Below, piece by piece: positions 25,265 through 26,317 of a DNA stretch of 64,000 nt. This stretch comes from Solirubrobacterales bacterium. GTDB lineage: Bacteria; Actinomycetota; Thermoleophilia; Solirubrobacterales; 70-9. The notes under the pieces are model-generated. The model saw only the letters and a program-made list of their open reading frames with translations. It did no database searches and had not been told where the DNA came from. Positions within the stretch are counted from its first letter, which is position 1, and each line of letters begins with the position of its first letter. A program made the translations under genes and the position numbers. Where the stretch lies: positions 4,207 to 68,206 of the forward strand of contig DATIMV010000030.1 of assembly GCA_035474955.1 (NCBI GenBank), given 5' to 3'.

Positions 25265-26317
25265 ATGAGGTGGGATGAGCAACGAGTCGAGAACGACCTG
25301 CGACTGCCGGGGGTGGGGGACGGCACCGTCGTCCGCACCTTCGACGCCCCGGAGGCGATGGGGATCAACTTCCACGAGGTCCGCGCCCGCTCGGCGCTGA
25401 ACCACGTTCCCGGCAGCCGCTACGGCTTCAGCTGGACGATCAACCCCTTCAGAGGATGCACCCATGCCTGTAAATACTGTTTTGCTCGAAGAACTCATAA
25501 CTATTTAGATTTTGGTCCTGGTAAAGACTTCGAGCGGGAAATCGTCGTCAAGGTCAACGTGCCGGAGCTGCTGCGGGCGGAGCTGCGGCGGCCGAGCTGG
25601 AAGCGGGAGCTGGTGGCGCTGGGGACGAACACCGACCCCTATCAGTGGGTCGAGAGCCGCTACCGGATGATGCCCGAGATCCTCGCGGCGCTGGAGGCGG
25701 CGGAGACGCCGGTCTCGGTGCTGACCAAGTCGCCCCTGGTGCTGCGCGACGTCGAGATCTACGAGCGGATGGCGAAGGTGCTGCCGATCTCGGTCAACCT
25801 CTCGATTCCGACCCTGGACGAGGAGGCCTGGCGGGCGACCGAGCCGCACACCCCAAGCCCAGCCGCCCGCCTCGAAGCCGTCGCCGAGCTCCGCTCCCGC
25901 GGCATCGACTCCGGAGTCCTGATCGCGCCGCTGATGCCGGGGATCAACGACGACCCCGACCAGGTCCGCCCGCTCGTAGAACAAGCCAAAGCCGCCGGCG
26001 CCACCTTCCTGGGCAGCGTCGCCCTCCACCTCCGCGGCGAGGTAAAGGACGTCTTCTTCGCCTGGCTAGAGGCCAAACGCCCCGACCTCCTCCCCCGCTA
26101 CGAAGCTCTCTACCGCGACCGCGCCTACATGCGGCCTGAGCAGCGCCGTCACGCAACGAGAGCTGTCAAAGGCTGGGGCAGAGGAAGAGCGTCAAGACAA
26201 AGGGATTCACGGGCGGGTGGCGACGATCGGGAGGACTCTCCCGATAGGGAGAGCCCCCGATCGGAGACAGGACCCGCCCGCCAGAGCTCCCCCGTCCACC
26301 AGGGTTCCCTCTTCTAG
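25265..26317 (+). CDS. Rv2578c-family radical SAM protein (SplB/DNA-photolyase-like, COG1533 type)
   Basis: [29 protein letters not shown] carries the CxxxCxxC motif. Start ambiguous (TTG 25238, ATG 25247 or ATG 25265). The C-terminal 35 aa are encoded by a repeat element and low-complexity sequence. Confidence 0.85.
   Translation: [350 protein letters not shown]
26212..26287. repeat. 76-nt palindromic repeat element, copy 1 (in-frame in the radical-SAM gene tail)
   Basis: 74/76 nt identical to 54481-54556. Has an internal hairpin CTCTCCC-GATA-GGGAGAG flanked by GATCGGG...CCCGATC. Confidence 0.85.

Follow-up and report, generated by a model that had tools for sequence, protein, structure and literature searches.

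A synonymous A/T-recoded tract at a vacant intein insertion site in an Rv2578c-like radical-SAM gene of a Solirubrobacterales bacterium

The 64,000-nucleotide (nt) stretch of Solirubrobacterales bacterium contig DATIMV010000030.1 analyzed here (referred to below as the window) harbors, at positions 25265 to 26317 of the plus strand, an Rv2578c-like radical S-adenosylmethionine (radical-SAM) gene, annotated as "DNA repair photolyase" and specifying a protein of 350 amino acids (aa), in which a short run of codons over the CxxxCxxC iron-sulfur (Fe-S)/SAM motif is switched to A/T-rich synonyms. The allele in the window is intein-free, and the point at which relatives carry a mobile intein in this gene is located inside the recoded patch. 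We propose, with a probability of roughly 0.55, that the patch would represent a gene-conversion tract anchored at the vacant homing site of this intein. This proposal builds on the observed coincidence of patch and insertion site, the mobility of the intein, the geometry of the tract, its mosaic distribution among alleles, and its decay.

The patch extends from 25451 to 25528 and, as an earlier note made from the sequence of this DNA had described, covers the CxxxCxxC motif, whose Cys codons are at 25457, 25469, and 25478. It comprises nine codons upstream of the 25477|25478 junction (AGA GGA TGC ACC CAT GCC TGT AAA TAC) and 17 codons downstream of it (TGT TTT GCT CGA AGA ACT CAT AAC TAT TTA GAT TTT GGT CCT GGT AAA GAC). 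The GC content of the 60 nt at 25470 to 25529 is 33%, compared with 63 to 80% on either side, in a soil metagenome-assembled genome (MAG) of 2.75 Mb in 73 contigs with 68.5% GC and an estimated contamination of 4.4%. Stretches of 60 nt with 20 or fewer G+C occur at just 17 places in this assembly, of which the other 16 are intergenic or fall within short open frames with a low G+C content at third codon positions (GC3), the patch being the sole instance inside a long, high-GC3 open frame. The extreme portion is represented by the 48 nt downstream of the junction, where the 16 C-extein codons at 25478 to 25525 display a GC3 of 1/16 (0.06 to 0.07). The 27 nt upstream (25451 to 25477) are moderately A/T-shifted (AGA GGA ... 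CAT ... TGT AAA) and near-ordinary for the family, with a GC3 of approximately 0.58 over the last 12 N-extein codons (25442 to 25477) versus 0.66 to 0.71 in nearly all family alleles of the order.

When 16-codon segments were slid along the long open frames of the assembly (approximately 470,000 to 620,000 segments), all others with a GC3 of 2/16 or less proved to be in the wrong reading frame; positions 25478 to 25525 constitute the only genuine coding segment of such low GC3 in the assembly, and the concern raised in the earlier note that patches of this kind might be common in this genome was not borne out. Other low-GC3 coding patches were also considered as further vacant intein sites, and all such candidates were wrong-frame open frames. 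The codons TTA and AGA, described in the earlier note as very rare, occur genome-wide at 0.19 and 0.61 per 1,000 codons, respectively (CGA at 3.35), and are the rarest sense codons for their respective amino acids, while the product of the relative synonymous frequencies over the 16 codons is approximately 1e-21. That the patch reflects chance drift or an assembly chimera is scarcely credible: the 73 contigs and estimated contamination of the MAG would allow for the latter, but the codon-frequency product and the singularity of the segment among all those scanned speak against such an origin. Furthermore, an independent species genome (G056, locus L032) shares the tract, as do four Joint Genome Institute (JGI) metagenome contigs from different samples (L171 to L174); being found in five independent assemblies, it is therefore attributable neither to chance nor to a chimera.

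The statement in the earlier note that the Rv2578c family includes intein-containing members is correct, these being represented by the family model NF038136, which aligns to the protein of the window in two pieces with a break at residue 72. In split alleles of relatives (22 at the order level and 9 at the phylum level), 420 to 1,065 nt are inserted between codons 71 and 72, and the C-extein match always begins at Cys72. Intact insertions start with Cys and end with Ser-His-Asn, which is then followed by Cys-Phe-Ala-Arg. Because the C-terminal pieces start at Cys72, the insertion point corresponds to Tyr71|Cys72, i.e., 25477|25478 on the plus strand, and thus lies within the patch, which settles the location check suggested in the earlier note. 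The sequences predict that Cys72, the third cluster-binding Cys of the Fe-S motif, would double as the +1 splicing nucleophile.

Most intein copies are 343 to 347 aa in length and contain two LAGLIDADG-like blocks (GYLCGMIRGDG and GFLAGIFDAEG). Variant copies include a degenerate intein of 295 aa, mini-inteins (140 and 160 aa), and a single copy with a frameshift, and the joint presence of full-length, mini, degenerate, and frameshifted forms would be as expected for a homing cycle. At least 8,000 homologs of the intein are present in the protein collection, carrying PF14528 (LAGLIDADG_3) and PF14890 (Intein_splicing), with precomputed PF14528 assignments on most of 120 homologs. Within the GTDB genus of the host, which holds 185 species genomes, split matches were detected in approximately 39 of the 160 genomes having the gene (about a quarter), and on an extein tree from which the patch was excluded, the 21 intein-bearing alleles require 19 state changes. 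Gain and loss of the intein are rampant in this genus, and its distribution is incongruent with the phylogeny of the host gene. No intein or LAGLIDADG domain was found anywhere in the assembly to which the window belongs. As regards the composition of the inteins, the endonuclease-less or degenerate copies of L016, L019, and L025 (295, 140, and 160 aa, respectively) display a GC3 of 0.88 to 0.93, equal to that of the host gene, and full-length inteins display a mean GC3 of 0.80, with some at 0.65 to 0.69, which suggests that older residents may have ameliorated and that some full-length copies may be recent arrivals. Broken states of the locus, each in a single genome, were observed in L119, where the intein is frameshifted, and in L127, where 1 nt is deleted in the C-extein tract approximately 30 nt past the junction.

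Codon profiles were compiled for 74 intein-free alleles that were not picked for similarity to the patch and for 21 to 22 intein-bearing alleles. Far from the junction, GC3 was 0.90 to 0.92 in these sets. Over the last 12 N-extein codons it was 0.66 in intein-free alleles, 0.71 in intein-bearing alleles, and 0.58 in the window, and over the first 15 C-extein codons the corresponding values were 0.81, 0.87, and 0.07. At codons -12 to -3, intein-free and intein-bearing alleles had a GC3 of 0.66 and 0.67, respectively, compared with 0.87 in an intein-free clade of relatives whose frameshifting 7-nt insertion (detailed below) must disrupt any target spanning the junction, this clade counting as one observation. 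The codon for His67 (codon -5; 25463 to 25465) is CAT in approximately 75% of both intein-free and intein-bearing alleles, where CAC is used in 91% of instances genome-wide and in 10 of the 11 members of the frameshift group; CAT at this position looks like part of a flank haplotype that may have spread with the intein.

Shorter versions of the A/T tract were identified in about 25 other intein-free alleles, the members of this graded series having been fetched by DNA similarity. All are anchored at the junction, their A/T-ending codons being most frequent at +2 to +5 (GCT CGA AGA ACT) and thinning distally with variable ends, none extending beyond codon +15/16. Such A/T-type alleles are scattered across the extein tree, and the core GCT CGA AGA ACT CA recurs in distant clades, its most widely shared part being GCTCGAAG (GCT CGA AG-; 25484 to 25491, plus strand). 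A/T-type alleles have intein-bearing sisters (L003/L107 and L035/L016). In the former pair, whose members differ in intein status, 10 mismatches are present in each of the two 30-nt bins adjoining the junction, with 0 to 4 elsewhere, while the core of L082 differs from that of its intein-bearing sister by only four changes, all within 10 nt. The GC content of the patch displayed no consistent relationship with intein status over nine sister pairs. At the phylum level, all nine intein-bearing alleles show a dip in GC3 at the junction, and true Rv2578c equivalogs lacking the intein are mostly without it. This contrast, together with the missing N-side dip in the 7-nt insertion clade, serves as a natural control in favor of a link between the patch and the intein site. 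A ..DAGR.. C-flank (117 of 120) was considered as an intein-specific haplotype and rejected, being equally dominant in intein-free alleles (67 of 74).

Distally, the tract gives way to a block (25526 to 25560; +48 to +85 in all loci), which reads GAC TTC GAG CGS GAG ATC GTC GTC AAG GTC AAC and is nearly invariant in DNA across the order, four-fold sites included; almost no mismatches were present at +51 to +90 in any pair compared. This invariance may reflect homogenization by repeated homing-associated conversion or simply strong codon bias. As for the question in the earlier note of whether the patch is conserved across high-GC relatives, conservation holds for a cluster of six alleles and, in shorter form, for the approximately 25 alleles mentioned above, the tract being absent from most orthologs.

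The age of the tract can be gauged from this cluster. The window allele and six others form a clade with 93 to 95% protein identity, of which six of the seven members carry the tract (C-side GC3 of 0.06 to 0.25). The seventh member, L175, has a C-side GC3 of 0.69 and differs from the remainder 2.5-fold more in the patch than elsewhere. Among the six carriers, synonymous divergence per codon is 0.12 to 0.35 in the patch and 0.14 to 0.20 in the rest of the gene. A two-state decay model was calibrated on 38 two-fold pyrimidine-ending columns outside the patch (pairwise difference of 0.109, 6% T) and predicts a pairwise difference of approximately 0.46 for columns that start as T. The value observed for two-fold T-ending patch codons (0.32 over eight columns) is near this prediction, and T states are thus reverting roughly as unconstrained sites would, such that the A/T state as a whole would be without selective maintenance. 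Given such fast decay, the tract is presumed to have entered shortly before the clade radiated, and the A/T tracts of distant clades would accordingly represent separate or transferred events rather than ancient inheritance.

The manner in which the tract differs from its G/C-rich counterparts points to recombination. Compared with L037, the closest allele with near-identical peptide sequence in G/C-rich codons, there are 17 differences, 16 of which are G/C-to-A/T and 11 of which are C:G-to-T:A transitions, with the peptide almost unchanged, and the codons of the tract (AGA, TTA, GGT, CCT, GCT, ACT, and AAA) are the ones favored by low-GC genomes. A large set of abrupt and purely synonymous changes is the hallmark of recombination with an oppositely biased homolog, and such a set is hard to reach by a mutational burst. 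It is proposed that conversion, and not point mutation, created and spread the tract. The LAGLIDADG endonuclease, whose activity is predicted, would cut intein-free alleles at Tyr71|Cys72, and the break would be repaired by copying another allele, a process which would turn the few dozen bases beside the junction into a hot spot for short gene-conversion tracts. The A/T stretch would be one such tract, namely a distinct and always intein-free flank haplotype which runs from the junction to the first long invariant block, where the exchange could resolve. It is envisaged to have arrived abruptly in the ancestor of the species cluster, from which shorter copies may have passed to other lineages of the genus, and to be drifting back at present to G/C-ending codons. 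Possibly, an allele that the endonuclease cannot cut would be the surviving repair template, from which cut alleles would receive tracts of differing length, and this would explain the spread of the A/T haplotype.

A co-conversion tract is characterized by clustered, mainly synonymous divergence abutting the insertion point, a pattern which was found here, and by a match to the flank of an element-bearing donor, which was not. Several findings weigh against the proposed gene conversion. None of the 31 intein-bearing alleles available at the DNA level has an A/T flank, and the tract is thus not the footprint of any sampled intein; among 241 million metagenome records, a search for an intein end joined to the A/T flank (CAYAAY+TGYTTYGCTCGAAGAAC; TGY TTY GCT CGA AGA AC) returned three chance matches, none in a radical-SAM gene. 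The A/T state is also a minority one, as the median C-side GC3 in the unbiased sample is 0.88 in both intein-free and intein-bearing alleles, and values of 0.5 or less were recorded for only 3 of 74 intein-free and 0 of 22 intein-bearing alleles. A source for the A/T dialect proved equally elusive: the best matches of the patch peptide (residues 55 to 100) in 5.8 billion proteins all belong to the same clade, low-GC Actinomycetota homologs (29 to 36% GC) represent other subfamilies and match at just 27 to 28 of 51 nt, plasmid and phage BLAST searches yielded nothing similar, and viral contigs encode homologs of only 27 to 30% identity. Moreover, NYLDFGPG[KE] is also encoded in G/C-rich codons in a neighboring clade, giving the tract the appearance of a native protein written in a foreign dialect. 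Finally, GCT CGA AGA is kept in 21 of 21 codon instances, above the neutral-decay prediction, an excess for which a plain scar offers no explanation.

Further searches concerned the origin of the dialect within and beyond the host. No ectopic template was found in the genome itself, and no metagenome contig matched an exact degenerate DNA pattern representing DFGPGKDFE written in A/T codons. The G/C-coded NYLDFGPG[KE] alleles may be ameliorated descendants of the same import, or else the tract may be native sequence recoded in place. Of the origins put forward in the earlier note, a co-conversion footprint of intein homing or loss agrees with the position of the site inside the patch, the high mobility of the intein, and the geometry of the tract, though not with the flanks of the intein-bearing alleles, while recombination with a low-GC homolog may have occurred, with no donor found in the protein, metagenome, viral, plasmid, phage, or low-GC actinobacterial searches.

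Recoding in place would acquire a purpose if it allowed escape from the intein. According to this explanation, synonymous changes in an Fe-S motif that cannot itself be changed would evade cutting by, or pairing with, intein-bearing donors, and the tract would be a resistance allele; since GC3 in this genome is near 0.9, such escape would necessarily proceed toward A/T. We consider this unlikely, though its probability is not negligible. The A/T haplotype was never found with an intein, but homing co-converts flanks, and absence of the combination is expected with or without resistance. The peptide is native, and its codons are as far as possible from those in common use, AGA and TTA each departing at two positions from CGC and CTC, respectively, whereas the complete tract, at 78 nt, exceeds known LAGLIDADG recognition sites, which span approximately 14 to 40 bp. 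The recurrence of the GCT CGA AGA ACT CA core in distant clades, the four-change difference of L082 from its intein-bearing sister, and the resistance of GCT CGA AGA to decay (retained even in L175, where 10 to 11 of the other 13 codons have reverted) are consistent with escape, yet most A/T states decay near-neutrally, and the sister pairs L003/L107 and L035/L016, in each of which an A/T-type allele has an intein-bearing sister, speak against it. Also in its favor, an intein-free clade has become fixed for the 7-nt insertion, a second drastic change at this site. Homing endonucleases of this type tolerate single synonymous changes in their targets, such that many would be needed (PMC3024317), and an arms race over a target site has been documented for WHO/FBA1 (bioRxiv 10.64898/2026.08.13.744650). 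Stepwise selection on approximately 17 synonymous sites would, however, require frequent exposure to the enzyme, and this genome is without any intein or LAGLIDADG gene.

The 7-nt insertion is present in 11 of the 185 genus genomes, in which tgY CGA TTA Y CGN TAY TGC occupies the region of the second and third Cys codons, leaving 13 nt instead of 6 nt between them (loci L193 [=L108], L194, L196, L197 [=L109], L199 [=L110], L198 [=L015], L192, L195, L200, L201, and L191). Its position is homologous to 25472 to 25477 of the window, exactly at the intein site, and 10 of the 11 genomes group in a single clade with strong support, their path lengths being 0.16 to 0.30 substitutions per site. In complete members, open frames cover both the N-part (71 codons, counted from MRWD) and the C-part (255 to 288 codons), the exceptions being L191, which is truncated by a contig end, and L200, whose N-part is open for only 46 codons. 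The ratio of nonsynonymous to synonymous substitution rates (dN/dS) is 0.04 to 0.19 on both sides, at dS of 0.3 to 0.9, and a C-fragment made on its own would lack a start codon. Purifying selection is therefore acting on the gene, and its translation must cross the shift. CGA is followed by TTA, the rarest codon, in 10 of the 11 alleles, with CGN exactly 7 nt downstream, and tRNA-Arg(ICG) decodes CGA, CGC, and CGT alike. If the ribosome hopped from CGA to that CGN, the product would contain C-R-Y-C, with CxxxCxxC reinstated, whereas a +1 shift would yield CX3CX4C. The insertion, which lies outside the window, is a candidate natural recoding site. A sequence approximately 93% identical to the host genome's own tRNA-Leu(UAA) gene was present in three of the five insertion genomes checked. 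In L104, a sister of the normal allele L081, the same 7-nt insertion lies in an unrelated extein background and is combined with an upstream TGG-to-TAG stop; either recombination may have brought the insertion in before the gene died, or the insertion may have arisen independently.

On a more speculative note, which we hold to be improbable, the empty homing site would have been a battleground with two independent host escapes, namely synonymous recoding, as in the window, spread by endonuclease-induced break repair, and the target-wrecking 7-nt insertion of a sister clade comprising at least 10 species, which ribosomes would pass by a programmed hop of 7 nt, or by a +1 shift, leading from CGA over TTA to CGN. 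If translated as proposed, the insertion alleles would provide a natural example of short translational bypassing in a chromosomal gene of a bacterium.

A purely mutational route was also considered, in which quasi-palindrome template switching would turn GCC CGC CG- into GCT CGA AG-, the complement of the invariant CTTCGAGC, after which the looped-out 36-nt single strand between the arms would accumulate C-to-T changes, the coincidence with the intein site then being indirect or accidental. The proposal draws on GCTCGAAG, which is the exact reverse complement of CTTCGAGC (25528 to 25535, plus strand; at the start of the near-invariant block and present in 106 of 124 alleles), the two forming the main stem of the minimum free energy (MFE) fold; this fold, however, is no more stable than those of shuffled sequences (z = -0.52), and a stem of 8 bp closing a 36-nt loop would, by our own estimate, be marginal. 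The A/T tract stops exactly at the start of the 3' arm, but A/T changes are also present on the N-side and ahead of the 5' arm (TGT TTT). The 12 alleles in which the arms match at 8/8 positions are without exception intein-free and have a mean of 5.75 of 11 A/T-ending codons between the arms, compared with 1.5 to 1.9 in alleles matching at 6/8 or fewer, an association which is phylogenetically nonindependent and partly built in, as one haplotype is involved. Nine of the 17 changes are C-to-T on the coding strand, whereas TTA, CGA, and AGA require transversions. Strand asymmetry carries no information on deamination after resection, since nearly all G/C-type codons have C in the third position. 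A templated origin would explain the recurrence of an identical multibase change in distant clades; the chance of GCT-CGA-AGR given A/T-ending codons is nevertheless approximately 1 in 18 by our own estimate. We judge this route very unlikely.

The earlier note had further suggested a nucleic acid-level signal, for which the candidates considered here were a rare-codon pause for Fe-S loading, a bldA-like dependence on TTA or AGA, and a binding site for a small RNA (sRNA) or protein in the mRNA or DNA. The genome's rarest codons (TTA and AGA) do cluster on the catalytic motif of a gene with an SOS box, and the three-codon core is retained. The check proposed alongside, for a tRNA-Leu(UAA) gene, gave a positive result, and since tRNA-Arg(UCU) and tRNA-Arg(ACG) are likewise present, all cognate tRNAs are available. 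Control of the bldA type implies a TTA that is conserved in orthologs and served by a dedicated tRNA, whereas here TTA and the A/T tract are absent from most orthologs, codon +9 being G/C-ending in 93% of intein-free alleles. Promoter, terminator, Rfam, and fold searches were without significant result, and decay of the tract is near neutral. A pause acting as the motif leaves the ribosome would be expected 30 to 40 codons downstream of the motif and not on it. A functional signal of this kind is, consequently, highly improbable, and the suggestion was not upheld.

With gene conversion at the vacant homing site retained as the favored explanation, the host gene itself merits description. The best-scoring family for its product is NF038135 (Rv2578c family), with 378.6 bits over residues 1 to 302, a value under the curated cutoff of 430 bits, and PF04055 (Radical_SAM) scores 65.7 bits. 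Orthologs begin at MRWDEQ. The CxxxCxxC motif (25457 to 25480, plus strand) comprises Cys65 (TGC), Cys69 (TGT), and Cys72 (TGT). Adjoining the ATG is a predicted LexA-type SOS box, CGAACATATGTTCG (25250 to 25263, without strand assignment), a perfect palindrome read directly from the sequence that contains the GAAC-N4-GTTC core of the actinobacterial LexA operator. At the opposite end, an ATP-dependent DNA ligase gene (26314 to 27267, minus strand) converges on the 3' end of the radical-SAM gene. In Mycobacterium tuberculosis, the intergenic region of Rv2578c and Rv2579 is a LexA site identified by chromatin immunoprecipitation sequencing (ChIP-seq) and subject to RecA-dependent regulation (PMC3381160). 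The gene of the window thus resembles Rv2578c of M. tuberculosis in being a radical-SAM gene with CxxxCxxC, in having NF038135 as its best family, and in its upstream LexA box, and the intein-containing sister model NF038136 breaks at the same residue in its product; its score below the 430-bit equivalog cutoff, however, assigns it to a related subfamily typical of Solirubrobacterales.

The homing cycle and co-conversion tracts are textbook matters, while the fate of empty bacterial intein target sites has hardly been described. The case reported here is an extreme, cleanly bounded, purely synonymous recoding whose position coincides exactly with a vacant intein site, within a genus showing intein turnover at almost every tip. 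It suggests a recognizable signature, namely that a patch of opposite codon bias across a conserved motif points to a vacant homing site, and this signature could help to trace earlier intein traffic and to address the question of host resistance. For annotation purposes, such patches would be regarded neither as regulatory rare-codon clusters nor as assembly chimeras.

Among known systems, the LAGLIDADG intein homing cycle, as exemplified by PI-SceI/VMA1 and the haloarchaeal polB inteins, proceeds through invasion, endonuclease decay, loss, and reinvasion. The present system resembles it in that a class-1 intein with two LAGLIDADG motifs resides in the most conserved motif of its host protein and in that full-length, degenerate, mini, and empty states coexist in close relatives. 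It differs in its host, an Rv2578c-like radical-SAM protein; in its +1 nucleophile, the third Fe-S Cys; and in that the empty site, rather than the intein, is described.

A second parallel is provided by the WHO elements of Torulaspora and their target FBA1 (PMC7282813; bioRxiv 10.64898/2026.08.13.744650). In both cases, an endonuclease of the LAGLIDADG type targets, or here is predicted to target, an indispensable conserved stretch of the host protein, FBA1 being an essential gene and the stretch here being the catalytic Fe-S motif encoded by an accessory gene for repair, and alleles differ at the target, with element-free or resistant versions having diverged there. Resistance and positive selection in Torulaspora were established experimentally and involve amino acid change, whereas the divergence described here is almost purely synonymous and mostly subject to neutral decay.

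A close counterpart to the tract itself is found beside the homing group I intron of cox1 in angiosperm mitochondria (PMC3192709). While the cox1 tract co-occurs with the intron and matches the exon of the donor, the tract described here is always at an empty site, displays an extreme opposite codon bias over approximately 48 nt, and has no known donor lineage. The two are otherwise alike: each is a short, mostly third-position synonymous tract situated directly downstream of the insertion site, asymmetric toward the 3' side, sometimes kept at an empty site in cox1 also, and associated with an element whose occurrence is sporadic and whose phylogeny is incongruent with that of its host.

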